Shown here piece after piece: positions 10,377 to 61,332 of a stretch of 64,000 nucleotides of DNA. Source of the DNA: a plasmid; sequence record NZ_CP024444.1, one strand, 5' to 3'. Positions within the stretch are counted from its first letter, which is position 1; each line of letters opens with the position of its first letter. The position numbers and the translations under genes were made by a program. Below the pieces are notes generated by a model, which had not been told where the DNA came from, ran no database searches, and saw only the letters and a program-made list of their open reading frames with translations.

Positions 10377-10455
10377 TATATTGTGACACCAATGGCTATT
10401 AGTTCCCTCTAATAGCCATTTTCCACACACAATAACCACGAATTGAATTTAGGTT

Positions 10456-13182: not shown

Positions 13183-13242
13183 GCATAACCTAGTAATAAC
13201 CACGCCCACGTAGGTAATGATGGGCATTTTAAGAGATAGCGA

Positions 13243-17739: not shown

Positions 17740-17887
17740 AAAATAAGCAAATATATGTTTGAAATTTAGGATATTTTACTCTATTGTTAACTGCGTATAG
17801 TTTGGGGTTTTAGGCAAAATTCCAACTCAAACTTAATCGCATCACAGCGATTACCTTAATTATTAGCGAATGATAAAGAGAACGGTT

Positions 17888-20506: not shown

Positions 20507-20584
20507 TGTGCTGTAAATCTGTTTTACCAACGACTAGCCTATCGTCGATAGGCTCATTAATTATTAGCGAATTAGGACCCAACC

Positions 20585-24399: not shown

Positions 24400-24410
24400 A
24401 GTGAGGGGCT

Positions 24411-25424: not shown

Positions 25425-25570
25425 TATTTATATTTTTGGTGTTAACCAGTATGTTAAGCGATTGAGTGCAACTTCATCGCTTTCCTAAAATAAGTAATTT
25501 TTAGTTTAGAAAAACCTTTAACATCCATTATCAAGTGAAAACTAGATAATAAAATATCTTAGGATGTATT

Positions 25571-26770: not shown

Positions 26771-26801
26771 CACGCCAACTAAACGGCAGTTAAGGTGATT
26801 T

Positions 26802-28106
26802 ATGATTAATTTTTTAGCGAATAAGAAACAGATATTTAAACCGTTGGCGATTGTAATCGCCACCAGTTTATCAGCTGAAGCAATGGCGAGCTGTGTTATT
26901 GACTCGGTTCACCCTGCAACCGCATTTACAGGTGATTTTGCCCAATCGCAAGCGACCTTATCAGCTGCTTTAAACGCCATGGATTTGGGTGTTAATAAAG
27001 CCCTAGAGTTACAAACAGCGGTTGTTTCCACCGCCGTCAACACCCTGACTTCACAAAAAGCGGTTGGCACCGTACAGTTAAGTAAAGCCATTAAAGACAA
27101 TACCCAACTTGAGGCCACCGCTGAACAGCAAATTGCTCAAAATGAACGAGTGAAAAAAGCTTTGCGTGATTATGGTCCACGCGGTATGGGTTTTGAAGTC
27201 TGCAAAGTCTTGGCTGAACGCCAAAAAATCGCTCGTACATCCGCTTTGGTTGATAAGGATGTATTTCGATTGGTTAATAGCGAGGTAACAGCCGCACCGG
27301 GTCGATACGCATCATCATCAAATGCGCTAGGTGTTCGACTAGCGTTGCATAATAAATTATATTGTACCGACGGTCAGGCTAGAGGTAATTTATGTAGTGG
27401 CAATGCGCCACGCCCAGGCAACGACTTAAAAGCTGAAGCCCTATTTGTTCCAGCATTGCCGGGTAGTGCCGCTTATGATGATAAAGTCGCCTTTATTAAT
27501 AATATGGCTGGCTTGCCATTTGATCCAGTACCATCAACCCAAGTGGGCACTTTACAAGGGTTGACCTATTCAGATTTGGCGCGTCGTGTTTCAGCGATTA
27601 AATCAACTGCGTTAACCACCTTGAAAACCATTCAGTCAAAATACTCCATCCCTGCTGATGTAGAAAATGACAACAACCAAACCGCTGCGTCCGCACCCAA
27701 TAACTCACAAGGTAAGAACAGTACCACCACTGAAAAAACCATTTTAGCCAGTGGTACTACCGCGCCTGCCGCCCCAGCAAATCCAGCGCAAGATTTACCA
27801 CTTGCCTTACAAGTTAAAAAAGACGTTAATCGTTATCTAGGTAGCGGTCAAGAATATAAAGAGTGGTCGCAAACACTGGTTAGTCTTGAAGAAAAGGGCG
27901 TCCTAGCCGAAATCTTACGTGAAAAAGCATTGCGTCTGCATATTCAAGCAGAAGAGTACAAAACCCTTCAGCAAATGGAAGCGATGTTGGCTGCAGCTGC
28001 TAGTGCTGAAACCTATAACGTTGGTATGGATAACAAACTTGAACGTCAACGCCAACAAGTTGTAAATCGCAACATCCGCCGTGCTATTAACGGCAACTCG
28101 CAATAG
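26802..28106 (+). CDS. secreted hypothetical protein (434 aa), paralog of the 25571 gene
   Basis: Signal peptide (AIVIATSLSAEAMA). Motifs GMGFEVCKVLAE ... LYCTDGQARGNLCSG ... EALFVPALPGS parallel the preceding protein. RBS AAGGTG. Confidence 0.55.
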   Translation: MINFLANKKQIFKPLAIVIATSLSAEAMASCVIDSVHPATAFTGDFAQSQATLSAALNAMDLGVNKALELQTAVVSTAVNTLTSQKAVGTVQLSKAIKDNTQLEATAEQQIAQNERVKKALRDYGPRGMGFEVCKVLAERQKIARTSALVDKDVFRLVNSEVTAAPGRYASSSNALGVRLALHNKLYCTDGQARGNLCSGNAPRPGNDLKAEALFVPALPGSAAYDDKVAFINNMAGLPFDPVPSTQVGTLQGLTYSDLARRVSAIKSTALTTLKTIQSKYSIPADVENDNNQTAASAPNNSQGKNSTTTEKTILASGTTAPAAPANPAQDLPLALQVKKDVNRYLGSGQEYKEWSQTLVSLEEKGVLAEILREKALRLHIQAEEYKTLQQMEAMLAAAASAETYNVGMDNKLERQRQQVVNRNIRRAINGNSQ

Positions 28107-28500: not shown

Positions 28501-29637
28501 ATGGCAACTGCCGCACTGAACGAAACCCTTATCAACCCACACCATGTCTTTTTGAACGGTTTACTAGAAGGTTTTCAAGTAATTGATGATGAAAACAGCG
28601 ATAAGTTCTTCTTCTTGCAACGTCAACACTCGGCATTACATCGGTTATTAAACGACAAGCAAACAGGTTATGAAGATTTCAAAAACCGCTACAAACAAGA
28701 TGCGCATAAGCTACTTGAGTCGTTGGGTGAAGACGTCATGTACTCTTCGGGCCAATACCTAAATGGCACAGCATTTCCTCATGAGTTAATCGAGGAGGGC
28801 ATTTCAACAGGCACGGTATCATCACACAGTAGCCCTGAAAGTATCAATGAGATTTACCCCTACAAAAAAGCCATCCAAGCAATGAAAGCATTGTATGACC
28901 GTAATGGCAGTTTAATCAGTGACAAGCTGTTAAAATTCCGACCACATCTACAATCGTTATTTCTAGCATCCAACCCTTATCCAATTTTGGGCTTAAATGC
29001 TGCTATTTTGGCTGCTTTATCTTACTTAAATGAAGCCGATGGCAATCCGCCCAGTAGTAATGTATGGAAAGTCGCTGAAAACGAACAACCCGATGGTTTC
29101 TCGGTTAATTGTGTTTTTCATGCAGATATTTCCCAGCTCACCCATGTTAACTACATTAATAATTACTGTGCCTATTGCCACCCAATTGACGATGACGAAG
29201 ACTATTTAGGCGACTATGACTTTGGTGGCATTTTTATCTATTCGGTATTAGAACCCATCAGTCAAAAGCAGATTTCTAACTTTTTTACTACGATAGCACA
29301 GGTACCGTTTAAATTTATTAAGCTACAAAACGTACCAAATAACCTTATCTCTACGTTGCTTGAGCATTACTATAACGACATTGATTACGCCTGTTTTGTA
29401 GAAACTTGTCAAAATTATCATGACGTTTTTGCTTATATGCTCGCCTGCGCATCAGGACTAAGCCTTAATTACTTTAAGGCATATATTGGTAAAGATTCAG
29501 GGTTTTTTAGACTCACTGAAGATGAACAAATTCAAGTCTTGGTACAAATCAAAAGCTTGGTTGATCCGATAGCGATTGCGATGCAAGACGGTGCGTTTCA
29601 AAATAATTTTGCTCACCAAAACATGGGTGATGCATGA
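28501..29637 (+). CDS. hypothetical protein (378 aa)
   Basis: First ORF after the 394-bp AT-rich gap, with RBS AAAGG. The stop overlaps the next start (ATGA). No recognisable domain. Confidence 0.55.
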   Translation: MATAALNETLINPHHVFLNGLLEGFQVIDDENSDKFFFLQRQHSALHRLLNDKQTGYEDFKNRYKQDAHKLLESLGEDVMYSSGQYLNGTAFPHELIEEGISTGTVSSHSSPESINEIYPYKKAIQAMKALYDRNGSLISDKLLKFRPHLQSLFLASNPYPILGLNAAILAALSYLNEADGNPPSSNVWKVAENEQPDGFSVNCVFHADISQLTHVNYINNYCAYCHPIDDDEDYLGDYDFGGIFIYSVLEPISQKQISNFFTTIAQVPFKFIKLQNVPNNLISTLLEHYYNDIDYACFVETCQNYHDVFAYMLACASGLSLNYFKAYIGKDSGFFRLTEDEQIQVLVQIKSLVDPIAIAMQDGAFQNNFAHQNMGDA

Positions 29638-30968
29638 GCTTATTTGACAAACTCGATGACGAGCTTGACATTGAAGCCCCACCGAACTTATCCAATACAG
29701 CACCACCTAAACCCAATAGTGACAATGTGGTTACTAAAATCACGCATGGCTTTGAAGGTTTCACTGAAAGCAATGTAGCCACACTTGCAAGCCACAGCGC
29801 AACGCCCACGTTTATCAATGATGTGCAAATTGTTGAGTCTAAACATGGGCTAAGTGGCAATCCTGTGGCATTAGACGGCTTGTCAGATGCACAAATTAAG
29901 CAATACCAAGAGTCCTTTGTGCTCGACGACAAATCAGCCCAGCTACCACTTAAAGCCGGGCAAACCCTTCACGCGATTAAACCCGATGAAGTGTATTATT
30001 ATTATTTAAAATACATCACCCAATTAACCCAAAGCATCACATTAAATCAGTTAACAATCGCCAATAACAAACTGCTTTACCCTGATTTTAAGCACCCACC
30101 CGCCAAACTAAACCAACATTTGCCATTATCGGTATTAACGCTAGATGATTATTATGTGCCTAATTTTGATGCGTTATACCGTAACTGTATTAATACTGCC
30201 ATTGTTGACGCGGTTGTTCGTCGCTACACTGGTTTATACCTAGACCCTAGTAATATCACGCCAGCTTACCAAGTTGGTGTTGAAATGGTATCTAACATTT
30301 CATCACTCACCCAGTCTAAGCAATTTATTCAAAATACCGCATGGACGTATTTTGCCCTATCGATGAATAATATTTTTGATTGGCAACGAAAAAACCGCTT
30401 GGCGTATCTATTTAGTTTTTGGCAAAAATGTGTGATGGCAACCATTGATGCCGACCAACAAGAAACCTTGCTTGAGGCACTAAAAAATCAAGCCAATAAT
30501 TTGCGCGAGCTCACCGATAAAATAGTGCTCGATAGAAAGTCGCTCATAAAAGACCGTAAGACCTATAATGCCAAAGAGATTTATTATGAGTCCAATGGCG
30601 TACTAACCTTGTTTGAAGCACAGCCCTACACCAACCCGATTGGCGGCAATGTGTTAATACCCACCAAGCTACTACTCACCACGGTTAATTATCTTGTATA
30701 TGAAGGGCTTTTAGACCGCCATATTTTGTCGCAAGTTGATAATAATGGCAAAGAATACTTGATTGTGAACCGCCTTGCTGAATACGCAACCGAAGACAAG
30801 CGTTACTATGAATTTTTATTGCCAGCGTTTGATGCGTTGATTAAGAGCTTTCTGCCGGACAATAAAGACCCCTATCAGGCGAATTTAATTAAAGGGCTTG
30901 GATATAGTGCTATTCAAGAGCATCGCCAATTTTACAGTGCTACCTCGCTTAATATATTGCCTGATTAA
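29634..30968 (+). CDS. hypothetical protein (444 aa)
   Basis: Start overlaps the upstream stop by 4 bp (translational coupling), with RBS GGGTGA. No recognisable domain. Confidence 0.55.
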   Translation: MSLFDKLDDELDIEAPPNLSNTAPPKPNSDNVVTKITHGFEGFTESNVATLASHSATPTFINDVQIVESKHGLSGNPVALDGLSDAQIKQYQESFVLDDKSAQLPLKAGQTLHAIKPDEVYYYYLKYITQLTQSITLNQLTIANNKLLYPDFKHPPAKLNQHLPLSVLTLDDYYVPNFDALYRNCINTAIVDAVVRRYTGLYLDPSNITPAYQVGVEMVSNISSLTQSKQFIQNTAWTYFALSMNNIFDWQRKNRLAYLFSFWQKCVMATIDADQQETLLEALKNQANNLRELTDKIVLDRKSLIKDRKTYNAKEIYYESNGVLTLFEAQPYTNPIGGNVLIPTKLLLTTVNYLVYEGLLDRHILSQVDNNGKEYLIVNRLAEYATEDKRYYEFLLPAFDALIKSFLPDNKDPYQANLIKGLGYSAIQEHRQFYSATSLNILPD

Positions 30969-33077: not shown

Positions 33078-34637
33078 ATGACCGTCTTACCAGCCAAGCC
33101 CCAAACCGATAAAACAGCCGATGTTCATCATTCGGATGTGATACCAGCTGGCGAGAATGACCCAATCAAAACAAATAGCCCGTCGAATGAAGCTAATGCC
33201 CAAACAGGCATAAAGCTTGATTTGAATGCTTTTGCAAAATACTTTTCTGATAATGAGTTACTTATCAGTCTTTTCTTAGAGCTCTGTTTTTTATTACAGC
33301 GCAATAATACCGCTGCCTTGTCTGTAAACGATCTGCAAGTACACCATACCATTTTAATGAAACTGCATAAAGAATACGGACTTACCGGGAATGTTTATCG
33401 AGAGCTTATGCGTTCAATTAGCAATGATGAAGATATGGGTAAGCTGCTTGGTCAATCCAAACACCTAGCTTATATTCGTGGTCAGCACCATGAAGATTAT
33501 GCCCGTATCATCGCCAATTATACCCGGCAAAATGGCTATCTTGTCACCATACAATTAACGGGCGATCCAAAACAAGATTACACCAATCTTAGCCAGTTGG
33601 TTTTGGATATTAAAAGCCAACCGATATTAAACTTAAGTAAGCAACGTTCTGATTTTTGCCAAGTGCAAGCCAATAAAAACTGGCAAGCCTTATATGACGA
33701 GTTAACTAACCCTGTTGCTACGCCAAAAAATCAATTGGTATTATCCTTTAGTCACGATGATAACCACCAAGGAACTAATATACGCTTGTATAAAGCGGTG
33801 TTTTTACTCAAAGAGTTGGTAGCAAAGTATCAAGTTGATACGGTGTCGTTTGATGACTTGACCCTGCATGAACAGCGGCCATCACCGAGCGACGCGCTAT
33901 TAAACACCCATGACTTTTTGTCTTTTGATAATAGCTTTATTTCCATTCAGCCGCATACCAATGATACGGTAAGACCCACCCTATCTAGTGATGTGGTTAT
34001 TATTCAAGATGTCGCAAGTGACGATAAAGAAGGGTCAAACACGCCAGTCGACGAAGATGCCACCAATACCAATGAAACCGCTGAACAAGATAGTGCTAGT
34101 GACCAACAAGCCACCCCTCAACCTAAAGTCCAAGCGACACCGGAACCAAAACCCAGCCTATTTAAGCGATTATTTAGCAAAATTAACCCCAGTCGAGCCA
34201 CCCAAGCAGCTGATAGCGACGTCGTTGATACCACAGCCGATATAAAAACACCCCCATCAAGTCAGGGACTACCCTCTGCAGCAGATAGTAATTCGGTAGC
34301 AACCGCTAATAAGTCCTACTCAAACAATAAAATTCAGCATACTTATCGGGATTGTGCAGGCGTGATGGTGACCAAACCTATCGACCATTGGAAACCTGTT
34401 AGTTGGAATAGTGAAAAATTGTTGGAATTTGAGCGTCATCACCTATCGCTTATTTTCAGCAAGTGTGTTAAAAATGACTTGGCGACTTTAGTTAGTCAAA
34501 AGCAAAAAGCCATTAACATCGATGAATTATTAAAAAATGGGTTTGATTTTCAATGTTTTGCGATAAACGCAGGCTTTTACGCTAAACTTCGCTGGCAAGC
34601 TAACTTGCAAGATACCGTTCAAAAATCAGGTTACTGA
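33078..34637 (+). CDS. hypothetical protein (519 aa) with a central disordered acidic/Pro-rich linker
   Basis: ORF with RBS GAGGGA. The middle region (residues about 300-400) is low-complexity D/T/P/Q-rich. Confidence 0.55.
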   Translation: MTVLPAKPQTDKTADVHHSDVIPAGENDPIKTNSPSNEANAQTGIKLDLNAFAKYFSDNELLISLFLELCFLLQRNNTAALSVNDLQVHHTILMKLHKEYGLTGNVYRELMRSISNDEDMGKLLGQSKHLAYIRGQHHEDYARIIANYTRQNGYLVTIQLTGDPKQDYTNLSQLVLDIKSQPILNLSKQRSDFCQVQANKNWQALYDELTNPVATPKNQLVLSFSHDDNHQGTNIRLYKAVFLLKELVAKYQVDTVSFDDLTLHEQRPSPSDALLNTHDFLSFDNSFISIQPHTNDTVRPTLSSDVVIIQDVASDDKEGSNTPVDEDATNTNETAEQDSASDQQATPQPKVQATPEPKPSLFKRLFSKINPSRATQAADSDVVDTTADIKTPPSSQGLPSAADSNSVATANKSYSNNKIQHTYRDCAGVMVTKPIDHWKPVSWNSEKLLEFERHHLSLIFSKCVKNDLATLVSQKQKAINIDELLKNGFDFQCFAINAGFYAKLRWQANLQDTVQKSGY

Positions 34638-34787
34638 TTGATAAAAACCATGATTTTTTTTGAGTAACTTGGTATCTTGAATTGCAATAAATATCTTATA
34701 ATGTTGTCAATATTTTATATTTTATTTTGATTTGGCATCCAACCTAGTCAACTTTAATTCTTAGCGCATCATAAAAAAGGACTCACC

Positions 34788-37700
34788 ATGTCTTTTATTT
34801 GTCCAACCGATTGTAGTAGTGACCGCGCCGTCAGCATATTACAAAGCATCTTTGGAAAAAACTTTATCGAGTCGTTTTATAAGTCAGGCACACCCAGCCC
34901 TGCCTTAGTCCATGCCGACTCTCATAGCATATTCCCTGTTATTACCAGCAATTTATCAACCGCTGCCTTAACCGTTGTGGGTATTATTATTTCCGTTAGC
35001 ATTATTCGTGGCTTGATGACTTCTGCCAACGATGGCGAGGCGATAGGGGTAAAAAATAATAGCCTTGGTGGTGCTTTTGGACGCCCAATATTTTCTGTTG
35101 CCATGATTACACCCGTGGCTTCAGGCTATATGATAATCAATATTATCATCATGGCTGTGGTGCTTTGGTCTAATAGTATCGCTAACCTTGCCTATAAAAC
35201 CTTTGTTGAAAATGACATTACAGGTGGTACGGCATCGGTTCTTGTCGATGACCCAAACTATCAAAGTGCCAATGATATGATTGTGCCTATGGTGTATGGG
35301 GCATTACAAGGTTATTGCTCAAAATATTCTAATTATAAGCTCAACAATTCGGTGACAATGCGCCAAACTAACGCATGGATTGACGCAACGGGGGTGTTAT
35401 CCAAAACCACGATTAGTGGTGCTCAAGGTCAGCGTACCACCATTGATTATCCTGAAGATGGCATATTAGGTGTGTTAGGCGTTACAGGGTCGGTTTGTGG
35501 TAAATTTGAAGTGACACGTAATGTTCAAGAAGAGCCAGCCATTACAGGCGATACCCAAAGTAAACAACTAGAATCAACTGTTCAACACGATCTGATTGTC
35601 CTTAGAAAACAGATTACCAATGTCCGTGTGAATTATATTTTAGCCGCATATTATGACGGCTATTATTATGCAACAGGTGAAGCACCTCCAGCCCCCGACT
35701 TACAATCAGTTTATCAAAATGGTGGTGGCAACCCTACTTTCACACCCGTTCCGTGGTCAATGGAATTGGCAACCAACACCAATGTTCCTGAAGACCAAAA
35801 ACCCAATGTCACGACTTTGATTAATGCCGCTAAAAACCGCAAATTAAAGCTAGATGCAGAAATACAAAGAATTTTAAATGCCAAGGGTGTTTTGGTCGCT
35901 GACAAAAATGGTCCCCTACCTAACCAACCTCCACCTCCCCAAAACGGGTTAACCACTATGACGGGTGCTTTGGTAAATGAAATTACTGCAGAAGGTTGGT
36001 TATCGGCTGGTAACTACCGTGCGCGTTTTCGTAAATTTACCGCAGGCTTAAGCGACTCTATTGCCAACAAACCCTATACCTACGGTTTACCAAACATAAA
36101 AGTTGATAAAGATGCCAATGAACAAGCTTCATTTATTGAAAGCCTAAATACCATTCGCACAGCCATCTTTGAGCAAATTAAATCAAAGGGCTTGTCACCC
36201 TCTTATTCAATGATTAACGTCGACAGCATTACTTATACCGCAAGCAATGATAAAGTCGATTTAACCACGTTATTGGATGGTCCAAGTTCAGGTGTGATTA
36301 ATGCGGTATTTAATGTCGAACAAGCCATGATTAATACCCTAATTGGTACCGGACCTGGTGAGCAAGTAGATGCCTTACAACGCATCCAAATGACGGGTGA
36401 TTATATTTTTGGCATTGAGTTTTTTATTAAAGCCATTCAAATGGCTACATCTTTAGCGATTGCTATGATTGCCGTGCTTGGTGCGACAGGTGGTGGTTTT
36501 ACTGATTTCGTCTATAAGACTGGTCAATCGTATGAAGGTATTAATAATTTCTATCAAGCCAATCTTGCCACCTATCTTGTAAAATTGGCTGACGATTTAG
36601 ACGTTATTGCCCGTTACTTCTCTACCATCATCCCAACGATGCCTTATGTATTCTTGACTTTGGCTGCCGTCGGATGGTGTATTCAGATTATTCAAACCAT
36701 GCTCGGTATGCCGTTATTCTTTATTATGCATGCTGTGCCACAACGTTCATTCTTGGGTGACCAAATGCAAGGTTATGTGACCTTGATGACGTTGTTTTTC
36801 AGACCCTTAATGATTGTTTCAGCGTTTTTCTTGGCGTTTGTACTCTACGACCCACTACTTACCTTTACCACGCAGATGTATCTATCATTGCATGAAAACG
36901 TCGCTGGAAGTACCTTTGATAGTACCATCCTAAGAATGTATACCGTGTTAAATACGTTTCGTTGGTATTGGCTGATTTTTGCTAACCTACTGTTGGTGGT
37001 AACTTACTACACTTTCGGTTTGGTACAAGAATTGGGTGATACCATTTTTGATTGGCTAGGTACCCGTATCTTTGGTGGTGGATTCGGTAATATGGACACC
37101 AATGGCGTGATGCGAAATGCATCAGTACAAATCGGTGGTGCTCAAGCGCGAAACCGCCAATTACAAGCCGAACGCGCCAAAGCACTCGCCAACCGCAAAG
37201 GTGGTAATGCTGGTGACGCAAATGCAACGGGCGAAGGTGGCAACGGTGGTGGCAATGGCGGTAATGGCGGTGCTAGAGGTGTTGGCGGTAACGATGCCGC
37301 ACGTAATGCCAGTATGTCAGGTGCAATGGGAACAGGTACAGGTTCAAGCCCACAAACACAACAAGCAGGACAAGGTGGTTTTGGTCCAACCGCTGGTGCC
37401 AACCACATGGGCGCAACTGCGCTTATTACAGCTGGTAGTGCCGCAATTGGTGCAGTACGTGGCGCAAGACAACAAGGTACTGCGTATGCGACAGGTGCCG
37501 CAAAAGCCGCAAGTGCAATGGCTGGCGGTGGTAAAGCTGGTAATGCCGCTGGCGCAGCGGCAGGAACAGTTGCAGGCTTGGTAGGTGGTGCGCTAGGTGC
37601 GGCTCGTGGTGGTTATGGTGGTGTAACTCGTGGTCTTAAATCATGGGGTGGTCGCCAATCTTATCAACAAAACTTGAACGAGGCGAGAGCTCGTGGTGCG

Positions 37701-37883
37701 ATTGGTACCAAAGGTTATGATGACCCTACACCATATCAACAAGCTAAAGCACCAACACCGCCAGCGCAAGCACAGGCGCAAAAGACTTCGCCTTATGGCA
37801 TGGGTTCAACGCTTACCCCAAATGTTAACTACACGGTTAATGGTGTTCAGTTTACACAACCAACTAACAAACGAGGCTCATAA
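34788..37883 (+). CDS. polytopic inner-membrane protein (1031 aa). It has 2-3 N-terminal TM helices, an about 400-aa periplasmic domain, an about 5-TM bundle and a Gly/Ala/Asn-rich C-terminal tail; VirB6/TrbL- or DotA/TraY-like architecture.
   Basis: Hydrophobicity read from the translation: TM helices around residues 55-75, 100-125 and 540-760. The tail carries GGNGGGNGGNGGARGVGG ... GGGKAGNAAGAAAGTVAGLVGGALGAARGG. RBS AAGGA. A hairpin follows at 37908-37937. Confidence 0.6.
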   Translation: MSFICPTDCSSDRAVSILQSIFGKNFIESFYKSGTPSPALVHADSHSIFPVITSNLSTAALTVVGIIISVSIIRGLMTSANDGEAIGVKNNSLGGAFGRPIFSVAMITPVASGYMIINIIIMAVVLWSNSIANLAYKTFVENDITGGTASVLVDDPNYQSANDMIVPMVYGALQGYCSKYSNYKLNNSVTMRQTNAWIDATGVLSKTTISGAQGQRTTIDYPEDGILGVLGVTGSVCGKFEVTRNVQEEPAITGDTQSKQLESTVQHDLIVLRKQITNVRVNYILAAYYDGYYYATGEAPPAPDLQSVYQNGGGNPTFTPVPWSMELATNTNVPEDQKPNVTTLINAAKNRKLKLDAEIQRILNAKGVLVADKNGPLPNQPPPPQNGLTTMTGALVNEITAEGWLSAGNYRARFRKFTAGLSDSIANKPYTYGLPNIKVDKDANEQASFIESLNTIRTAIFEQIKSKGLSPSYSMINVDSITYTASNDKVDLTTLLDGPSSGVINAVFNVEQAMINTLIGTGPGEQVDALQRIQMTGDYIFGIEFFIKAIQMATSLAIAMIAVLGATGGGFTDFVYKTGQSYEGINNFYQANLATYLVKLADDLDVIARYFSTIIPTMPYVFLTLAAVGWCIQIIQTMLGMPLFFIMHAVPQRSFLGDQMQGYVTLMTLFFRPLMIVSAFFLAFVLYDPLLTFTTQMYLSLHENVAGSTFDSTILRMYTVLNTFRWYWLIFANLLLVVTYYTFGLVQELGDTIFDWLGTRIFGGGFGNMDTNGVMRNASVQIGGAQARNRQLQAERAKALANRKGGNAGDANATGEGGNGGGNGGNGGARGVGGNDAARNASMSGAMGTGTGSSPQTQQAGQGGFGPTAGANHMGATALITAGSAAIGAVRGARQQGTAYATGAAKAASAMAGGGKAGNAAGAAAGTVAGLVGGALGAARGGYGGVTRGLKSWGGRQSYQQNLNEARARGAIGTKGYDDPTPYQQAKAPTPPAQAQAQKTSPYGMGSTLTPNVNYTVNGVQFTQPTNKRGS

Positions 37884-37907
37884 TTAGTTGCATAACTATA
37901 CAAAAAT

Positions 37908-37937
37908 AAAGGATTGTCAAATAATTGACAATCCTTT
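37908..37937 (+). terminator. perfect 13-bp-arm hairpin AAAGGATTGTCAA-ataa-TTGACAATCCTTT after the membrane-protein gene
   Basis: Inverted repeat read directly, 25 bp after the stop at 37883. The U-tract is weak (TTTATAGG). Confidence 0.45.
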
Positions 37938-38077
37938 ATAGGCGTGTTACGATAATTATGCCATAATTTTTGACCAACCACGGTAAAGTACCTATGTAAA
38001 CCACAAAAATTAACGCACACATAACCATATTTAGACCAGCTGAAGTCGAGAGCAGCTATCTTTATCAAGGAATGGTT

Positions 38078-39619
38078 ATGTCAGACAAAAGCAATAAATA
38101 CATGAATACCGACTTTTTAGAGCCAACCGCCCTAGATGCCGCTATTTATCACTCACAAAACAAGCGTTACGCTGATATTGCCGCCCGACAAGAGCAGGCG
38201 GCATACATACGTCAAGTACGCGCGGAACAATGGGGCGAAGAAGTTTCTAACCAAGCTTTGCGTAACTCATTTGTAGCACTCGCCAAAAAAGCCTACCCGA
38301 CTGAACTAAACTATTTATGGCACTACACTGCTGAATTGCGCGAGCTTTTGGTATATCCTGCCTTGCCTAAACTTATTTACTACCCACCAGGTAATGGTAA
38401 AATCCTTGAGATTGACCCGATTGTGACCAGTAATGGCTTATTTAAAGCTAAAACCTACACAGCACAATATAATGAGCATCACGCCTGCGTGTATTATTAT
38501 CAGCAAATCACTCGCCATACCCGTTTTTTAAACCTGATTAGCGATATGTTAGTTAACTATTCTGAAGCTTTGGATTTAGCCTACAACCATTACCCTGAAG
38601 TCACCGATGACAATGGCTTTTGGACACCCAAAGACTTTATTGCGCGTGAGTTAATTGACCGCTTACACCGTGTTACCCAAGCCGATGTGGTATCAGGCAT
38701 TCAATTAAACACCTTGGATGATACCGAGTTGTATGCGCCTGTATCTCGATGTGAAATTGGTCTAACCCTATTGGATAAATGCTACTCACGCATTGAGGCT
38801 ATCGAGCGTGGCGAGCTTTATCATCCATTGGCTGGTGAGAATTATGTCCCACCAATGCCAGCTCCCATGTATAGCGAACACGCGGCCAATAATGTGTATT
38901 CGGTATGGTATGACACTTTGGCCAATGAAGCGTATGGCTATTACCGGAATTTTGCTGACCAAGACGCCTTGGAAAACACTGGATTTATGGTGGCTGGACT
39001 TAGTTATTTAGACAACGAGCTGGCTCGCGTGATGACACCGTTTCCACCTAACCCAAACAAGGCGGAAGAGCAAAGCATGCAGTACCATATCCGCCAATTG
39101 ATGTTTTTACGCGGTTTAATTCGTCGTAAAGGGCATTTTTTAGCAGCCATTACCCATGTGTTGTTGATGATTTTTGAGCGATTACCACAAGCACAACCAT
39201 TGTTGTGCAACTTAATCTTTAACAACACATTCTATGAATTTGAGCAGCATCTAGCTAAAAGAGAATTTGTTTGTGATTTACCCGATAAAGAACAGTTATT
39301 TAATGATGAAGCATTCTTAAACCTTATCTTTATCAACAACGACAATGCTGATACATTGTTGGACGACTCGGTAAACTTGTATCGTCATGCTGAACAAGTT
39401 ATGGCGCAATTAGCCGAATTACGCGCCAATGGCAATCCAACGCCTGTATGGAATTTCAGACGTGATACTTTTATCAGTGGTGATTATAGCTATACACCTG
39501 AAGTCAAGGCTAACCGAATGCAATTTATGGCAGATGAATACCAAAACTTAGTTGCGTATATGGATGGCTTTAAACCTGTGGAAGAAAGACCTCCTATCCG
39601 CCCAGCTGCCACCCAATAA
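38078..39619 (+). CDS. hypothetical protein (about 513 aa), last gene of the cluster
   Basis: ORF 38072..39619. The ATG at 38078 has better spacing to the AAGGAA RBS. Followed by a clear terminator. No recognisable domain. Confidence 0.55.
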   Translation: MSDKSNKYMNTDFLEPTALDAAIYHSQNKRYADIAARQEQAAYIRQVRAEQWGEEVSNQALRNSFVALAKKAYPTELNYLWHYTAELRELLVYPALPKLIYYPPGNGKILEIDPIVTSNGLFKAKTYTAQYNEHHACVYYYQQITRHTRFLNLISDMLVNYSEALDLAYNHYPEVTDDNGFWTPKDFIARELIDRLHRVTQADVVSGIQLNTLDDTELYAPVSRCEIGLTLLDKCYSRIEAIERGELYHPLAGENYVPPMPAPMYSEHAANNVYSVWYDTLANEAYGYYRNFADQDALENTGFMVAGLSYLDNELARVMTPFPPNPNKAEEQSMQYHIRQLMFLRGLIRRKGHFLAAITHVLLMIFERLPQAQPLLCNLIFNNTFYEFEQHLAKREFVCDLPDKEQLFNDEAFLNLIFINNDNADTLLDDSVNLYRHAEQVMAQLAELRANGNPTPVWNFRRDTFISGDYSYTPEVKANRMQFMADEYQNLVAYMDGFKPVEERPPIRPAATQ

Positions 39620-39763: not shown

Positions 39764-40882
39764 ATGAAAACACTCAAGCTACGCATACGAGATAAACACA
39801 CAAACCAACTTAATAAACTAAGCGGTTTGGTGAATTTCGTATGGAACTACGTTAATGACTTGAGTTACAAACACCTACAAAAAACTGGCAAATTCTTTAG
39901 TGCTTATGACCTAAACCAATACACCAAAGGTAGTGGTGAATTACTAGGCTTGCACAGTCAAACTATTCAAGCCATCAATGAAACCCACGCCAAAAACCGC
40001 AAGCAATCCAAAAAGGTTCGGCTTAACTGGCGAACCAATAGCCTCAAAGCCAAGCGTAAAAGCTTAGGTTGGCTACCTTTTAAACAATCCGCTATTAAGT
40101 ATATTGCCACGCACCAAACTGGCAACTGTTTATCAAAAAGCAAGGGCTTAAAATCCACCTTGCAACTATCCTTAGCCAAAGGACAAAAACTCATCATTGA
40201 CCTATGGGATAGCTACAACCTTAGCCTATATCAAATCAATACTTGCGAACTGGTACAAGACAGTCGTAACCGTTGGTATGCCTGTATCACCGTCAAAGAC
40301 TATCCCAAGCAATCATGCGGTACTGGTAGTGTAGGCATAGACTTGGGTTTAAAAAAAAGTGCTACCACTTCAAGCGGTGACAAACTTACCATCAAGCAAA
40401 CGCTCAAATATGCCAAAGCGTTAGCGATTGCCCAGCGAGCCAACAATAAACAACGTGTTAAGGCAATCCATGCTAAAATCAAACATACACGCCAAGACCT
40501 CATCCATAAATTTACCACCCAATTAGTCAAAGACAATGCGCTAATTGTGGTAGGTGACGTGAAAACCAATCAATTCAACAGTAAAAAAGGCAAACTAGCC
40601 AAATCGGTTTACGATGCAGGTTGGTTTGAACTCAAAAGACAGTTGGAATACAAGTGCAAGCATGCAGACTGTCATTTTGAGGTAGTGAGTGAAAGAATGA
40701 CAACCCAAACCTGTTCGTGCTGTGGCACTCGCAACAGTAATCTTAGCGGTAGAACAGGCTTAGGAATAAGAGAATGGACTTGTGGTGCTTGTCATACCAC
40801 GCATGATAGAGATATCAACGCAGCCAAGAACATTCTTGCGGTTGGGCTTAACCGTCTTGTAGAAGGAATCCCCTCACTTTAG
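39764..40882 (+). CDS. tnpB: IS200/IS605-family TnpB (OrfB, IS1341-like RuvC/Zn-finger RNA-guided nuclease family). It is solo, with no TnpA nearby.
   Basis: Typical TnpB length of 372 aa. C-terminal RuvC-III plus zinc-finger region TCSCCGTRNSNLSGRTGLGIREWTCGACHTTHDRDINAAKNI. No Y1 transposase ORF on either side. Confidence 0.85.
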   Translation: MKTLKLRIRDKHTNQLNKLSGLVNFVWNYVNDLSYKHLQKTGKFFSAYDLNQYTKGSGELLGLHSQTIQAINETHAKNRKQSKKVRLNWRTNSLKAKRKSLGWLPFKQSAIKYIATHQTGNCLSKSKGLKSTLQLSLAKGQKLIIDLWDSYNLSLYQINTCELVQDSRNRWYACITVKDYPKQSCGTGSVGIDLGLKKSATTSSGDKLTIKQTLKYAKALAIAQRANNKQRVKAIHAKIKHTRQDLIHKFTTQLVKDNALIVVGDVKTNQFNSKKGKLAKSVYDAGWFELKRQLEYKCKHADCHFEVVSERMTTQTCSCCGTRNSNLSGRTGLGIREWTCGACHTTHDRDINAAKNILAVGLNRLVEGIPSL

Positions 40883-41005
40883 GGAGGGGAGGAAGTCAAA
40901 CTGCTTACAAACCCTATAATTATAAAAGCTTTGGAATAAGTTAAGGGAATAAGTTAAGATTTTTGAGCAAAATATGCTCAAGCCGTAGTAAAACAGAGGT
41001 GATAT

Positions 41006-41296
41006 ATGACCGATAAAAGCACATTGGCAACCGACAAAGCTGTGTTATTTAGTCCTTATCATAAACGCATTATGGAATTGCTAGATACTCACACCATTAT
41101 CGCTACGCTCGCCACATTAAAAGAAGAGTTTGATTTTCCTTACGATGAAGCTGCACTAACAGACTACATTTACCGTTACACCAATATCAAAGAAATTAGA
41201 AAAAAAGCAACGACGTTTGATTTTAATAAGGCTAGACAAGAAGACGGGTTGCAATCAAACATCCAACCTGACGATCCATTTCCAGCAAGCGGCTAA
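41006..41296 (+). CDS. small hypothetical protein (96 aa)
   Basis: Good RBS (AGAGGTGA, 5 nt before the ATG). Followed by a terminator hairpin at 41303-41334. Confidence 0.4.
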   Translation: MTDKSTLATDKAVLFSPYHKRIMELLDTHTIIATLATLKEEFDFPYDEAALTDYIYRYTNIKEIRKKATTFDFNKARQEDGLQSNIQPDDPFPASG

Positions 41297-41302
41297 AACA
41301 AT

Positions 41303-41334
41303 AAAACCCACTCAAAGCAGTGGGTTTTATTTTA
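41303..41334 (+). terminator. rho-independent terminator
   Basis: AAAACCCACT-caaagc-AGTGGGTTTT followed by ATTTTAAATT. Confidence 0.6.
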
Positions 41335-41536
41335 AATTAAATTTCCGGTAAATCGACGGGACGAAATAAAACGCTCTAAATGCGTTTTATAGCTTACTTA
41401 AACCTTTAAACGACCAATGTACCAACACGATATCAGACAGCGGTTAAACGCGAAATTTGACGCCTTATCGCGTGTCTATTTATCTAACTGGCTGGCTTGA
41501 TGAATAATTCCACTTCAACACGCCAGCAATCACCTT

Positions 41537-44206
41537 TTATTTTTTGGTGCTTGATGGTTTTTTAGCTTTACTTTTGCTTTTACTTGTACCTGTTTTTTTC
41601 TTGCCACCGTTAGCTTTAACTTCCTTGTAGTAAGCATAATCAGGCTTACCATCTTTAGTGCTCGATGTTGTAGTGCCGCAATCTCGATCAAAGCACCCAA
41701 ACCAAATCCGTTTTGGCTCTGTTTTGGTCAAGCGTTTTTCCATAGGTCCTTTACATTCAGGGCATGGGTACAATGGTTTACCGTCTTTCATTGCTGCATT
41801 GATTTTTGCTTGTTTTTCCGCCTCTTTATCGGCAAAGAATTTCTCTTTGTCTAAAACAGGCTTACCCTCTCTGTTTTCAAAGGTAATAAAGTCGCATTTT
41901 TGTTTGCTGCTGATACAACGCCAATAGAATTTACCTGGCTCTTTACTGTTTTCTCGTCTAACCACGACATCACCGCAGTCTGGACAAGGAAATTTAGGGG
42001 TTCCGTCTTCATTGATAAAACCCACCCTTTCTTTCTCGGTACGCTCTTTGATAAAGGCATCCAAGTCAAAAATTGGGGTTTTAGTCTTGCCATCGTCATA
42101 CGCAAAGCCTTCACAGCCGTCTTTATCACGACTACAACGCCAATAAAACTTGCCCTTTTTATTGGAATTTTCACGTCTTACCATTGGACTTTGGCAGATA
42201 TTACAAGGGTGTAACGCTTTGCCGTCTGCATCCACAAACCGCTTAATTTCATCCTCTTTCATTTTTTTAATATCTTCACGGGTGGCAGGTTTACCATCTA
42301 AATCAATGGTTTTATAACCACACCGTTCTGAACAAATCCAGTAGTGCTTTTTGTATTCTTTGTTATACCCCTGCATCATGCCAGCACCGCAATCAGGACA
42401 AGGGTATCTAACCGCCTTGCTTAATTGAGCGTTTTCTTTCTCAAGCAATGCAAATACTTCACGAAGGTATTCTTTATAGTCTTTATCACCATTGGCAATT
42501 TCATCGAGTGCTTGTTCCATACTGCGTGTATAGCTAGTTTTCATGATACTAAGCACGTCGGTTAGCGTATCAACCAAATCTTTTGCGTTGGAGGTCGACA
42601 CCAATGCCTTTACCTTAGATTTACCTACTTTTTCAGTCTTAATATACCCATGTGTCGGGTCACAAATTGTGGACACGGTTGTCGCAAACGTAGACGGTCG
42701 ACCAATCCCTTCTTTTTCCATCTTCTTAATCAAACTAGCTTCAGTAAACGGTTTGGGTGGCTGGGTTACGGCATTTGATACATCATAACCGCACACATCC
42801 ACCACATCCCCAATATTAAATTCAGGGAATTTTTCTTCGCTTTCTTCCGCACTGTTTGGGTTTTTCTCGTTATTATCATCGTCAACTTCGTCAACATCTT
42901 TTAAAACCATCCAGCCTTTTGAGATTAAAACTGAATCTATCGCATTAAAAATGTATTTTTTACCGTCACACTCCCCTTCAAAGGTGGTTTTTAATTGGTT
43001 GTAAGTCGCAGGCTTTAATTGACTGGCAATTGTTCTATTAAAAATTAGCTCGTATAATGCTTTAGCATCCCCTTCAAGGTCACTGCCATCATAGTCAACT
43101 GCAGTCGGTCTAAGGCATTCGTGACCTTCTTGGGCTACGGCATCCTTACGGGTTCTGACACGTTTAGCGTCTAAAACAGGGTAGCCTTTTTGTTCAGCAA
43201 ATTCTTTTAGTAAGTCAAAGCCTTCATCTGATATCGCGTCGCTATCGGTTCGCATATAGGTAATATGACCAGCTTCATACAGGGTTTGCAAGATTTCCAT
43301 GGTTTTTTTACTGGTCAACCCTAGCTTATTAATAGCATCCTGCTGAATGGTGCTTGTACGATAAGGATGTGGGGCACTGCGTTCTTTGGTGCTTTCTTCA
43401 ATATCGATTACCGTTAGTTTTTTGATGGTTTTGGCTATTTTGTCGGCAAGCTCTTTATTGGTGAAATAAGACGTTTCAACAACAACCTTTTCGCCTTTGT
43501 CGTTTTCAATCTCTTCGGTACTAATTAAGCCACTTTTAGCCTTATCAAGCTTACAACCCCACTGTGGTAGGTCTTTTTTAGTATCTTCTTCGTTTGGCCA
43601 CGTTTTTGAAAATAGCTTAACGTTAAAATGTTTGACAGGTTTGAAATTGCTAATTTCGCGCTCACGCTCAACCACAAAAAGCACCGCTTGAGATTGAACA
43701 CGCCCAACAGGTGAAACACGCCCTAACTTCTGTGACAATGCCTTAGTTGAGTCCCAACCCACTTTGCGATCCAGTATCCTACGAGCCTCTTGAGCCGTCA
43801 CCAAGCTATAATCAATTTTACGAGGATTGCTTAACGCATTTGCCAGTTGGCTCTTAGTAATACTATTAAATGTACAGCGAAAATAGTCACCTTCACCAAG
43901 ACCTAGGTGTTTTTTTAGACTTTTAGCAATCGCTTCCCCTTCTCGGTCAGGGTCGCTTGCTAGACAGACTGCGTCAAATTTTTTGAGGTTCGCTTTGGTT
44001 TTTCTAACAAACCCCTCGCCTCTGTCTGATAACTCATAGTCAATTTCTAGCGTTTCTTCATCAAAACCCATTTCACCTTTCTTGGTCGTCATTCCCTCGA
44101 TGTGTCCACCACACGCAACAACATCCCAGCCATCACCAAGTATCTTTTTGAGTTTATCGATTTTACCGCCAGACTCCACAATCATGAGTTTTTTCTTGTC
44201 ACTCAT
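41537..44206 (-). CDS. type IA DNA topoisomerase (Topo III/TopB-like, plasmid/ICE type) with at least three C-terminal C4 zinc-ribbon repeats and a Lys-rich tail
   Basis: N-terminal Toprim region (MIVESGGKIDKLKKILG, DPDREGEAIA). C-terminal repeats CPDCGAGM...WICSERCGY, CNICQSPM...WRCSRDKDGCEGF, CPDCGDVV...WRCISSKQKCDF and CPECKGPM...FGCFDRDCG. Confidence 0.85.
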   Translation of the reverse strand: MSDKKKLMIVESGGKIDKLKKILGDGWDVVACGGHIEGMTTKKGEMGFDEETLEIDYELSDRGEGFVRKTKANLKKFDAVCLASDPDREGEAIAKSLKKHLGLGEGDYFRCTFNSITKSQLANALSNPRKIDYSLVTAQEARRILDRKVGWDSTKALSQKLGRVSPVGRVQSQAVLFVVEREREISNFKPVKHFNVKLFSKTWPNEEDTKKDLPQWGCKLDKAKSGLISTEEIENDKGEKVVVETSYFTNKELADKIAKTIKKLTVIDIEESTKERSAPHPYRTSTIQQDAINKLGLTSKKTMEILQTLYEAGHITYMRTDSDAISDEGFDLLKEFAEQKGYPVLDAKRVRTRKDAVAQEGHECLRPTAVDYDGSDLEGDAKALYELIFNRTIASQLKPATYNQLKTTFEGECDGKKYIFNAIDSVLISKGWMVLKDVDEVDDDNNEKNPNSAEESEEKFPEFNIGDVVDVCGYDVSNAVTQPPKPFTEASLIKKMEKEGIGRPSTFATTVSTICDPTHGYIKTEKVGKSKVKALVSTSNAKDLVDTLTDVLSIMKTSYTRSMEQALDEIANGDKDYKEYLREVFALLEKENAQLSKAVRYPCPDCGAGMMQGYNKEYKKHYWICSERCGYKTIDLDGKPATREDIKKMKEDEIKRFVDADGKALHPCNICQSPMVRRENSNKKGKFYWRCSRDKDGCEGFAYDDGKTKTPIFDLDAFIKERTEKERVGFINEDGTPKFPCPDCGDVVVRRENSKEPGKFYWRCISSKQKCDFITFENREGKPVLDKEKFFADKEAEKQAKINAAMKDGKPLYPCPECKGPMEKRLTKTEPKRIWFGCFDRDCGTTTSSTKDGKPDYAYYKEVKANGGKKKTGTSKSKSKAKKPSSTKK

Positions 44207-44321
44207 ACTTTCACCTAATTATTCGCTATAAATTAAATTTTGGACACGTAACAAGCATCACGCTCGCCCAAAAATCCAAACCATTATCCTTTCCGGTAAA
44301 TGGTCAATACCAACATTAAAA

Positions 44322-44360
44322 CATATTAAAAAGCCTACGACAAACTGATTATCGTAGGCT
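44322..44360 (-). terminator. rho-independent terminator downstream of the 542-aa membrane-protein gene (minus strand)
   Basis: AGCCTACG-13 nt-CGTAGGCT stem. On the minus strand it is followed by a TTTTTAATAT tract. Confidence 0.55.
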
Positions 44361-44382
44361 ACTTACCAAGGGTTAAGCTTGC

Positions 44383-46011
44383 TTATGCAAAGGCATCTAC
44401 AACGATTTTACTATCATCATTTTGTAGTGACAGATCATACTCATAACGTTCGTTTTGTTTATCGCTTAGTCGCTCAAGAATAATGTCTTTATCTGTGCCA
44501 GTCACATTTTTCAACTTTTCCCAAGCCTCGACTTCTTCTTCAGTGAATTTAAAATAGCGTACCTGTTCCACTAAACCATCATACGCAATGGTAAAAGACG
44601 GTTCATTCAGTAAGCTATCCAAGGTTTTTTCCATTAAAAAGTGTGAACTGGCACCTAAATTCTCACAATACCAACTCGGACGCCCAACATTTTGAACCAT
44701 TGCCCACAATGTACGGTCATAAAACTTCATCCATTTTAAATGGCAAGGTGGCAACACGCCAATCTGACGGGCTTTTTCAAGACACGCAATAATGATGGTT
44801 CTTGTATAAGCATGTTTAGAGATAATTTTTTTGGCAAGTGGCCTTTCAATCCATGTCGCCAAGTCTGCCTTGTACTCTTCTAACTTATCAAAGTCTAAAA
44901 AGCCTCGGTCTTCATCATTGTCGCCAGTTTTTTTAGTTAAATCACGATATACCCAATTGAACATATAGTCCAAGCGTTCTTGTGATTTATTTTTAATCTC
45001 TTTAAATTCCTCGTCTGTTAACTCGGTATCTTCAGCGCAAGCACGGGGTAAGATGATCGTTAAAAGTATCAACTCAAGCGGCTCTATGTTATCAATGCCT
45101 GACCACGGCTCACCTAATTGTTTAATCATAACGCTATTGAAACGATCCGGGTCAATGATTGGCACCAAGTTGCTTTTGTCAGTTAAGTTCACATCCAATG
45201 TATCAATCGTTGGAGGCACAAAACGCTCATTAAACTTTTTACCATAATCATCAGGCGAAATCGTATTTGGTCGCAACATAAACCCACTAATTAGGTCGTT
45301 CTCAAAACAAAAACGCTTGGTGCCATCCATGATACGCAGTTGACCTTTATTAATAGGTAGTAAATTAGGGTTAACTAAATCCACTAAGCTTAAATGCGGA
45401 TATAAAGGTCTTTGTTCGCGGATAAAGCTTTCCATGTCATGTTTTTTGGTCATGGTATTATCCGGGTGCTTTTTGGCAACACGAGCCACGCCTGCGCCTG
45501 CGCTAAAAATAGCAGGCCAAATGATAATGATATTGGGTAAAAAACTCGCCACAAACGCTTTGATACTGCCGATTTGATCTAAATCGACCAGTGTTTTTTG
45601 ACAACTAAACAGTGCATCCAATCCATTGCTAGTTGGACCACAAAAATCTCTAATATTTTTGGTTAATAGGCTTTGCTCGGCTGGTGCAATCACTTCAGAA
45701 AACGCCAAAAAAAACCATAAACCAGCAAAGGTAAATCCCAAAAGGGCATTTTTCTTCTGCTGTGTATGTCTATAATAAGAGATTGCCGCAATAATAATAC
45801 CAATGCTTACGCAGACTTCAGCCCCACCATACATACCAAAATGGTTTTCACCATAATATACAGGCAAGGTAATCACACCATATACCCATTTAGCTATCAT
45901 TAATACAAATTTTTTGATGGTAAGCCATAAGGTATAAGCAAACATACTCATACCAGCGATCATCACTAGCGTTTCTAGCTCGTCTTGACTTCTACGATTA
46001 TTTTGAGTCAT
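44383..46011 (-). CDS. membrane protein (542 aa) with four N-terminal TM helices and a large cytoplasmic domain; DotM/IcmP-like topology, function unknown
   Basis: TM helices within the first about 175 residues, then a soluble domain with no motif. Forms a co-directional array with the T4BSS-like genes. Confidence 0.5.
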   Translation of the reverse strand: MTQNNRRSQDELETLVMIAGMSMFAYTLWLTIKKFVLMIAKWVYGVITLPVYYGENHFGMYGGAEVCVSIGIIIAAISYYRHTQQKKNALLGFTFAGLWFFLAFSEVIAPAEQSLLTKNIRDFCGPTSNGLDALFSCQKTLVDLDQIGSIKAFVASFLPNIIIIWPAIFSAGAGVARVAKKHPDNTMTKKHDMESFIREQRPLYPHLSLVDLVNPNLLPINKGQLRIMDGTKRFCFENDLISGFMLRPNTISPDDYGKKFNERFVPPTIDTLDVNLTDKSNLVPIIDPDRFNSVMIKQLGEPWSGIDNIEPLELILLTIILPRACAEDTELTDEEFKEIKNKSQERLDYMFNWVYRDLTKKTGDNDEDRGFLDFDKLEEYKADLATWIERPLAKKIISKHAYTRTIIIACLEKARQIGVLPPCHLKWMKFYDRTLWAMVQNVGRPSWYCENLGASSHFLMEKTLDSLLNEPSFTIAYDGLVEQVRYFKFTEEEVEAWEKLKNVTGTDKDIILERLSDKQNERYEYDLSLQNDDSKIVVDAFA

Positions 46012-46027
46012 AGTTATCTCTTACATC

Positions 46028-47380: not shown

Positions 47381-47396
47381 CTACCTTTTAAAATTC

Positions 47397-58071: not shown

Positions 58072-58144
58072 ATCGTTTTCCTTATTACAAAAAAGTTGTG
58101 ATCTCCCTTTATTTTTAGAGAGGTCTTGTTTGTCGTTAAAATGA

Positions 58145-59479: not shown

Positions 59480-59510
59480 GACCTCAGTTTTTCAAGTTTA
59501 ATAAAGAGAA

Positions 59511-60089: not shown

Positions 60090-60164
60090 TTTACTTTCCT
60101 TAAGATGAATTGATCGACATGGTGTGAAATTCACACCATGGATTTTTAATATGAGATTAGTTAA

Positions 60165-61286
<1,122 letters not shown>

Positions 61287-61332
61287 TTAGACCAAATGTA
61301 GTTTTTGGCACCGAACATCAAGTCGGTGCTGA

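Follow-up and report, generated by a model that had tools for sequence, protein, structure and literature searches.

In Legionella pneumophila, the in-situ structure of DotA comprises two N-terminal transmembrane (TM) helices, a large hydrophilic extended domain and five long hydrophobic helices (bioRxiv 10.1101/2025.06.23.660953). Five copies form a closed axial chamber, together with a cap consisting of an IcmX pentamer and a cage formed by DotG (Yue et al. 2025, bioRxiv 10.1101/2025.06.23.660953), and on contact with the target this chamber is proposed to open and form a conduit across the envelope (bioRxiv 10.1101/2025.06.23.660953). DotA is considered the equivalent of VirB6, and IcmX the equivalent of VirB5 (bioRxiv 10.1101/2025.06.23.660953; 2025 nomenclature review PMC12857230). 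In conjugative plasmids, traY is indispensable for the conjugation of R64 and pCTX-M3, and entry exclusion involves TraY together with its partner ExcA (PMC6112013). Acinetobacter megaplasmids with a gene set homologous to the one described below also conjugate (PMC8490738), and pAB3, which has a DotA homologue in its Dot/Icm-like set, lost transfer when any one gene of this set other than dotC was deleted (PMC10746170). Here we analysed a 64,000-nucleotide stretch of plasmid DNA (sequence record NZ_CP024444.1; hereafter, the window), focusing on one gene of this Moraxella osloensis megaplasmid that very probably encodes the VirB6-equivalent DotA/TraY subunit of a conjugative apparatus of the I-type (type IVB, MPF_I).

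34788-37883, + strand: DotA/TraY family gene, 1031 amino acids (open reading frame (ORF), TIGR04346, profile against PDB 9ngy, exact-sequence lookup)

The ORF extends from the ATG at 34788 to the end of the stop codon at 37883 and encodes 1031 amino acids (aa), exactly as placed in the first-pass annotation of this DNA. A Shine-Dalgarno sequence, AAGGA (34777-34781), could be read directly 6 nt before the ATG. The NCBIfam model TIGR04346 (DotA/TraY family) matched the protein with 189.9 bits against a cutoff of 100, with residues 14-758 corresponding to positions 2-656 of the 656 in the profile. An exhaustive HMMER search with the core of the protein (aa 1-770) recovered 1,532 relatives, the closest of which, outside its own cluster, displayed just 30-39% identity. 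The core in the window and 13 diverse relatives were aligned, and the resulting 14-sequence profile was searched against the PDB. As a result, L. pneumophila DotA (9ngy/9nh0; 9ngy_FP1) was matched with E=4.2e-58 in three collinear stretches. The first (DotA 30-479) covers TM1/TM2 and a portion of the extended domain that contains the ICG and GW..AG motifs, the second (DotA 732-848) covers hydrophobic helices with IPxxPY, H..P and RP, and the third (DotA 906-954) corresponds to the last helix with LPD.VL.W.G.

The first-pass annotation had proposed either an extended VirB6/TrbL-family channel or a DotA/TraY-type protein. The latter is borne out by TIGR04346, by the profile match to 9ngy and by the type IVB genes described below, and the former did not hold at the sequence level. 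Concerning a classical extended VirB6/TrbL subunit of a type IVA system, the combination of hydrophobic helices with large hydrophilic domains does fit the definition of extended VirB6 (PMC12857230), and the literature describes DotA and VirB6 as structurally alike. VirB6/TrwI of type IVA systems has two anchoring helices, five hydrophobic helices, an axial pentamer and a VirB5-like cap in common with DotA (bioRxiv 10.1101/2025.06.23.660953; PMC12857230). On the other hand, a Pfam search with the protein gave no family at E<=10, PF04610 included, the significant matches are all to DotA/TraY models, and the recognisable neighbours all belong to type IVB systems, with no VirB-type genes found among them. 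Sequence similarity was undetectable with VirB6, a far smaller protein that has neither the large inserted domain nor the tail. A type IVA subunit is thus contradicted by the sequence and highly improbable. As DotA is treated as the structural equivalent of VirB6, the two names are not truly rivals. As for an unrelated polytopic transporter (an RND or ABC permease, for example), the generic presence of several hydrophobic helices is all that speaks for it. No transporter family was matched in Pfam or NCBIfam, and with the strong DotA/TraY evidence this proposal is refuted, with virtually no probability left to it. The homology to such a permease that would have spoken against a channel protein was therefore not found.

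The identification is not new, since RefSeq and UniRef already carry the exact sequence (WP_100271086.1 / QCR87154.1 / A0A2D2LXJ0) under the name 'DotA/TraY family protein [Moraxella osloensis]'; just the older GenBank records call it hypothetical. The exact sequence is present on 20 contigs. A word-indexed homologue search with the full protein, the core or the 14-sequence profile returned its own 90% cluster only. Scanning a genome collection gave 0 matches with the single protein and one short contig of a Moraxella metagenome-assembled genome with an 8-sequence alignment. The 90%-identity cluster also holds MBP0644282.1, a 114-aa fragment from a 343-bp contig under the label Mycobacterium tuberculosis, most likely M. 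osloensis DNA contaminating that assembly.

The arrangement of the protein was then derived from Kyte-Doolittle hydropathy and the alignments, giving the following segments.

34947-35177, + strand: N-terminal membrane anchor, with TM1 aa 54-78, loop aa 79-100 and TM2 aa 101-130 (hydropathy, alignment)
35178-36407, + strand: hydrophilic 'extended domain', aa 131-540 (hydropathy, conservation, partial alignment to the L. pneumophila DotA extended domain)
36408-37097, + strand: C-terminal hydrophobic helices, aa 541-770, equivalent to HH1-HH5 (hydropathy, invariant columns, alignment to DotA 732-848 and 906-954)
37098-37880, + strand: Gly/Ala-rich basic tail, aa 771-1031, 261 aa (composition, tail alignment, allele comparison)

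Hydropathy placed the two N-terminal hydrophobic segments at approximately aa 54-78 and 101-130, a region that aligns with the TM1/TM2 region of L. pneumophila DotA. The loop between them (aa 79-100) contains the most conserved motif of the family, SANDGEAxG...R, and G83, G87, R99 and P109 are invariant in the alignment. No hydrophobic segment was found in the following stretch of approximately 410 aa (131-540), in which the Cys pair C177/C237 is nearly invariant and the GW..AG motif (aa 403-408) fully so. This insert is presumably periplasmic, judging from homology and from the Cys pair, whose conservation fits an oxidising compartment. Hydrophobic peaks reappear at aa 545-570, 614-650 (37 aa wide), 663-690 and 727-747, in a region marked by IPxMPY, W630, H648-x2-P651, QGY, RP and a final L..D....W.G. 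The protein thus shows the two TM helices, the insert and the C-terminal helices of the layout of two TM helices, insert and five helices; the four peaks correspond to four to five helices. The N-terminal helices, soluble insert of about 400 aa and C-terminal bundle that had been predicted are therefore present.

When compared with L. pneumophila DotA (9ngy/9nh0), the order of segments is the same and the lengths are similar (1048 aa in Legionella, 1031 aa here). The extended domain is approximately 530 aa in Legionella DotA and approximately 410 aa here, and the five disulfides of the former contrast with one conserved Cys pair. Conversely, the tail that follows the core is longer here (approximately 260 aa, compared with approximately 95 aa). 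Legionella DotA serves in effector translocation and pairs with IcmX, whereas IcmX was not found here. TraY of IncI1 R64 and IncL/M pCTX-M3, likened here by description, belongs to the same family and functions in MPF_I conjugation (PMC6112013). These TraY proteins, again compared by description, are approximately 725-745 aa long and essentially tailless, and a gene resembling that of their partner ExcA was not recognised here.

We examined the surrounding genes, using the tra proteins annotated on the Acinetobacter megaplasmid pOXA23_010062 as the BLASTP reference. In the blocks compared (1-25000 and 40000-52206), the window and the 248-kb M. osloensis plasmid pMOXF1 share 99.5% identity, and the DotA/TraY protein is 100% identical to the pMOXF1 copy. 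Homologues of DotM, ParM, DotB, DotC and DotD are encoded on the - strand, 6.5-14 kb downstream of the DotA/TraY gene.

44383-46011, - strand: DotM/IcmP (TrbA) homologue, coupling-complex subunit (NF033890, 96 bits; PF23127 DotM_C, 112 bits, cutoff 27)
47397-48476, - strand: ParM/StbA actin-like protein (position matches that in the tra region of the Acinetobacter megaplasmid)
48843-50162, - strand: DotB/TraJ secretion ATPase homologue (TIGR02524, 198 bits, and TIGR02525, 177 bits, both under their equivalog cutoffs)
50159-51457, - strand: DotC/TraI lipoprotein homologue (PF16932 T4SS_TraI, 165.6 bits, cutoff 26)
51457-51993, - strand: DotD/TraH lipoprotein homologue (weak NF033882 match)

Identities to the Acinetobacter proteins were 30% for DotM, 42% for DotB, 41% for DotC/TraI and 37% for the DotD/TraH lipoprotein (E=2e-24). 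A 450-aa ORF lies between DotM and ParM/StbA. In a separate region of pMOXF1 (72-99 kb), BLASTP identified DotI, DotH, DotG, TraU/DotO (32% over approximately 1070 aa) and DotL (47%). The accompanying genes are the same as in Acinetobacter (DotD-DotC-DotB-ParM, DotM, and DotI-DotH-DotG...TraU-DotL). Judged by its gene content, the type IVB apparatus appears complete and split over three plasmid regions, as in Acinetobacter. NCBIfam gave 0 matches on ten unannotated ORFs of the first tra region of pMOXF1. In addition, a 90-aa ORF between ParM and DotB (48542-48814, - strand), which is annotated in pMOXF1, has two hydrophobic segments and no Pfam match; its product might serve as a small membrane component of the machine.

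The closest described systems are those of the Acinetobacter megaplasmids (group III-4a pALWED1.1 and pOXA23_010062, pA297-3 and pAB3). Their DotA/TraY proteins belong to the same family, are also from Moraxellaceae, and are approximately 1000 aa in length. Identity is 26-32%, and BLAST alignments were confined to aa 1-133 and 395-864, leaving out the central part of the hydrophilic domain. The Acinetobacter tails are Gly/Ser/Ala-rich and 220-250 aa long, whereas the M. osloensis tail is more basic and richer in Ala. The genes flanking DotA also differ: in Acinetobacter these encode giant LPD1 proteins and an M23 peptidase, and in M. osloensis exported paralogues and acidic ORFs without database matches (ORFans).

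The DotA/TraY identity and the type IVB genes support the initial proposal that this protein is the membrane-channel candidate of a secretion apparatus. Taking into account that the related Acinetobacter systems conjugate, it would most likely form the pentameric chamber at the centre of a type IVB conjugation system. By analogy with the Legionella structure, five copies would be anchored in the inner membrane via the two N-terminal helices, and the long C-terminal hydrophobic helices would build a closed chamber on the axis of the machine. The hydrophilic domain of approximately 410 aa would tile the periplasmic face of this chamber and dock a VirB5/IcmX-like cap. On contact with a recipient, the chamber would open and join the conduit. 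If the related Acinetobacter plasmids are taken as a guide, the substrate would be plasmid DNA with pilot proteins, and the gene would then be indispensable for conjugation. Pentamer formation, gating and a role in DNA transfer are what we infer for this protein from its relatives.

Several points weigh against this assignment. The support for function comes from relatives of this plasmid lineage. The protein scored 73.1 bits with the Legionella-type DotA equivalog NF033886, far below the cutoff of 500, and we therefore regard it as a member of the DotA/TraY family, not as an orthologue of the DotA of the Legionella effector system. A single-sequence search of the PDB failed to recover the solved DotA, whereas the profile did so, indicating a relationship that is remote but secure at the profile level. 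Because it is remote, pentamer formation, gating residues and the docking surface may differ from those of Legionella DotA. A signal peptide was not evident at the N-terminus, unlike in the drawing of Legionella DotA, and for this reason the topology of the first 53 residues is uncertain. AlphaFold2 with a 4-sequence alignment of the protein gave an unusable model, with a mean predicted local distance difference test score (pLDDT) of 30. No partner of the IcmX/TraW type was recognised among the neighbours with NCBIfam, Pfam or profiles against the PDB. Finally, MOB-suite types pMOXF1 as non-mobilizable, with no recognised relaxase.

The relaxase bears on two other explanations. According to one, the protein is the DotA of a type IVB system that translocates effectors, instead of or besides conjugating, and the acidic ORFans are its secreted substrates. 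Along with the relaxase that is not recognised on pMOXF1, this would be in line with the DotB homologue, for which the Dot/Icm model gives a marginally better score than the plasmid TraJ model (198 vs 177 bits, both under cutoff), and with approximately 14 kb of genes for large acidic proteins upstream (8109-22081) that have no signal peptides or database matches. The authors of the pAB3 study also raised possible protein substrates (PMC10746170). However, the homologous Acinetobacter systems transfer DNA and are likewise without a recognised relaxase. The plasmid carries partition and replication genes, TopA, SSB, a UvrD-like helicase and an ArdC-like gene, typical of conjugative backbones, and no link was found between the ORFans and secretion. 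We consider an effector system unlikely.

The second explanation regards the gene as an intact-looking relic in a defunct transfer system, broken by insertion sequences (IS) and devoid of a relaxase. IS982, TnpB and, in pMOXF1, IS256 are indeed found around the tra genes, which are split over three plasmid regions, and the plasmid is typed non-mobilizable. Nevertheless, most listed members of its 90% cluster have the ORF at full length, the rest being fragments on short contigs, and the 20 contigs mentioned above carry it unchanged. Among alleles, the helix region is without substitutions while the tail varies. All core type IVB genes are intact on pMOXF1, and transfer-proficient Acinetobacter plasmids have the same split organisation (PMC8490738). 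A defunct system is therefore improbable as well, and a DotA/TraY subunit of a conjugative apparatus is the reading we retain.

The variation among alleles was examined by segment. In 11 near-identical alleles, the helix region (aa 541-770) contained 0 variable sites, whereas 29 of the 38 variable sites and all of the indels fell in the tail. This indicates that the helices predicted to form the chamber are the constrained part of the protein. The tail consists of 22% Gly, 20% Ala and 7% Asn, and with 24 Lys and Arg residues against 7 Asp and Glu has a net charge of +17, which would fit a cytoplasmic location. The rise in GC across this region is due to the codons for Gly and Ala. The tail had been described as made of GGNGG and GAAAG repeats; the Gly/Ala-rich composition is correct, but the sequence is of low complexity with a few conserved motifs rather than built of repeats. 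Tandem Repeats Finder gave just one 9-bp unit in two copies, and an origin by tandem repetition was rejected.

Alignment with the relatives P0002-P0004 revealed the order of elements in the tail. A conserved junction, FGN(M/L)(D/E)T.GVM, is followed by a GGNGG spacer with indels, two hydrophobic segments, a conserved GR.(S/A)YQ.N...KG motif and a variable end. The two hydrophobic segments, conserved and composed of small residues, are located at approximately aa 874-893 and 915-940 (ALITAGSAAIGAVRGA and AAGAAAGTVAGLVGGAL), and may lie in or on the membrane. In the immediate clade, tails are 256-314 aa, Gly/Ala-rich and strongly basic. In the family, the tail after the core has a median length of 146 aa, reaches at least 100 aa in 84 of 145 relatives and exceeds 1000 aa in some, with G/A/S/T/N typically accounting for 50-68% of the residues. 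Gly/Ala/Val segments of a similar kind were found in 26 of 83 long tails, compared with approximately 9 expected from shuffled tails. The tail is thus a fast-evolving region with islands of conservation, and is probably a disordered extension of a kind common in the DotA/TraY family. In the second-closest clade (P0005-P0016), the C-terminus is extended by 470-1100 aa in which Ser, Thr, Asn, Gly and Ala abound, and some of the extensions show obvious peptide repeats such as 'GTPNQSASMNSGTNAN' in P0007. These extensions far exceed the length of any characterised DotA or TraY.

The flanks of the gene were inspected for signals of transcription.

34638-34787, + strand: intergenic upstream region, 150 bp (sequence reading, composition, promoter scan)
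37906-37939, no strand assigned: perfect inverted repeat with 15-bp arms and a 4-nt loop (hairpin, folding and promoter scans)

The first-pass annotation had proposed that the gene is separately transcribed, citing an AT-rich upstream gap of 150 bp and a hairpin downstream. Both features are present, but separate transcription itself is unproven, as signal counts do not exceed those of shuffled sequence and the hairpin lacks a U-tract. The upstream gap is 73% A+T, compared with 59% for the whole window, and contains a perfect TATAAT at 34697-34702 with no good -35 element. A promoter scan of the + strand of 34638-34787 gave no site at threshold, and the numbers of promoter-like and terminator-like signals equalled the shuffle expectation. 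Five other junctions of the same gene block have gaps of 109-394 bp. The inverted repeat begins 23 nt past the stop codon and reads ATAAAGGATTGTCAA-ATAA-TTGACAATCCTTTAT. Its folding energy is -26.9 kcal/mol (z = -7.8), and it is unique in the window. As no U-tract is present on the + strand, the hairpin was rejected as a canonical intrinsic terminator of the DotA/TraY gene. Its right arm supplies the TTGACA of a promoter-like TTGACA-17-TACGAT (37925-37953), with an upstream TG, that faces the gene at 38078-39619. From its sequence, the palindrome may be an operator rather than a terminator.

We also considered the ORFan block around the gene, for which the initial reading had raised the possibility of a secretion-related apparatus.

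22969-28106, + strand: four conserved exported proteins of 476, 337, 399 and 434 aa (signal- or anchor-like N-termini; synteny with DotA)
22969-24399, 24411-25424, 25571-26770 and 26802-28106, + strand: the individual exported genes, the last three being paralogues
33078-34637, + strand: 519-aa acidic protein directly upstream (adjoins DotA in relatives, with 25-26% identity and in the opposite orientation there)
38078-39619, + strand: 513-aa acidic protein directly downstream (adjoins DotA in the relative locus L010, with 25% identity)

The + strand ORFs of 8109-34637 and the ORF at 38078-39619 gave 0 matches in Pfam or NCBIfam, and 0 BLASTP matches to the Acinetobacter tra region. Metagenome contigs, one of them 293 kb in length, that carry DotA relatives of 32-35% identity nevertheless share a set of neighbours in identical order: the four exported proteins of 22969-28106, the ORFs of 28501-30968, both genes flanking DotA, TopA, DotM, the 450-aa ORF and ParM. 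Since this synteny is kept around such distant DotA relatives, an association of the block with the apparatus, as suspected initially, is reasonable from approximately 22969 onward. Further upstream, 8109-22081 contains five consecutive large acidic ORFs (755, 908, 1498, 878 and 498 aa) with no signal peptides and 0 library matches. Among 72,556 plasmids, pMOXF1 was the sole match to the nucleotide sequence of this stretch.

In the distant relatives, the four exported proteins are 31-53% identical to those in the window, and the 399-aa protein (43-53%) is better conserved than DotA. The paralogy of the last three was detected with hhalign (probability 99.8%, E=5e-29), and the profile of one paralogue weakly matches the 'M23 peptidase' gene beside Acinetobacter DotA/TraY (E=1.4e-5). 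None of the four has a Pfam or NCBIfam match, their profiles found nothing credible in the PDB, IcmX included, and AlphaFold2 on the three paralogues gave a pLDDT of 36. Judged by sequence and gene order, the four are candidates for periplasmic parts of the machine that have escaped recognition. Going further, we tentatively raise the possibility, short of a likelihood, that the periplasmic and axial parts of the machine are largely unrecognised, that the exported proteins represent the IcmX/VirB5-equivalent cap or new subunits, and that the hydrophobic segments of the tail act as membrane-active helices in gating or recipient contact.

Other features of the plasmid were noted. A type I DNA topoisomerase (889 aa, under the topA equivalog cutoff) at 41537-44206 on the - strand adjoins DotM, and its position is kept, with 42% identity, on the 293-kb metagenome contig. 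An IS200/IS605-type TnpB of the RNA-guided endonuclease family (236 bits) separates the DotA block from topA at 39764-40882. Just past TnpB, pMOXF1 carries an additional IS256 copy that is absent there in the window. The 203-247 kb region of pMOXF1 (CP040258.1; loci L001/L007) is a long run of small same-strand genes, including several pentapeptide-repeat proteins, two ssb genes and an ArdC-like DUF1738 gene, and resembles the leading region of a conjugative plasmid.

To the right of DotD, the window diverges from pMOXF1. The accessory stretch at 52297-64000, which is absent from the corresponding position in pMOXF1, contains an IS982 transposase, a uvrA paralogue lacking approximately 140 profile-equivalent N-terminal residues, DUF3422, an NAD(P)/FAD oxidoreductase and a formaldehyde detoxification set (fghA and class III alcohol dehydrogenase). 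From the uvrA paralogue onward (approximately 53188-64000), the sequence is 99.6% identical to Acinetobacter baumannii plasmids, which points to a recent exchange between Moraxella and Acinetobacter.

The biology of the DotA/TraY family is already established, and in this respect the identification adds little. Some novelty is limited to the exported paralogues that travel with DotA and to the conserved hydrophobic islands in the tail. The analysis gives a correct name to a gene called 'hypothetical' in older GenBank records. It marks the M. osloensis megaplasmid as the carrier of what is, by gene content, a complete transfer machine of the Legionella type, and one related to the machine that spreads resistance megaplasmids in Acinetobacter.

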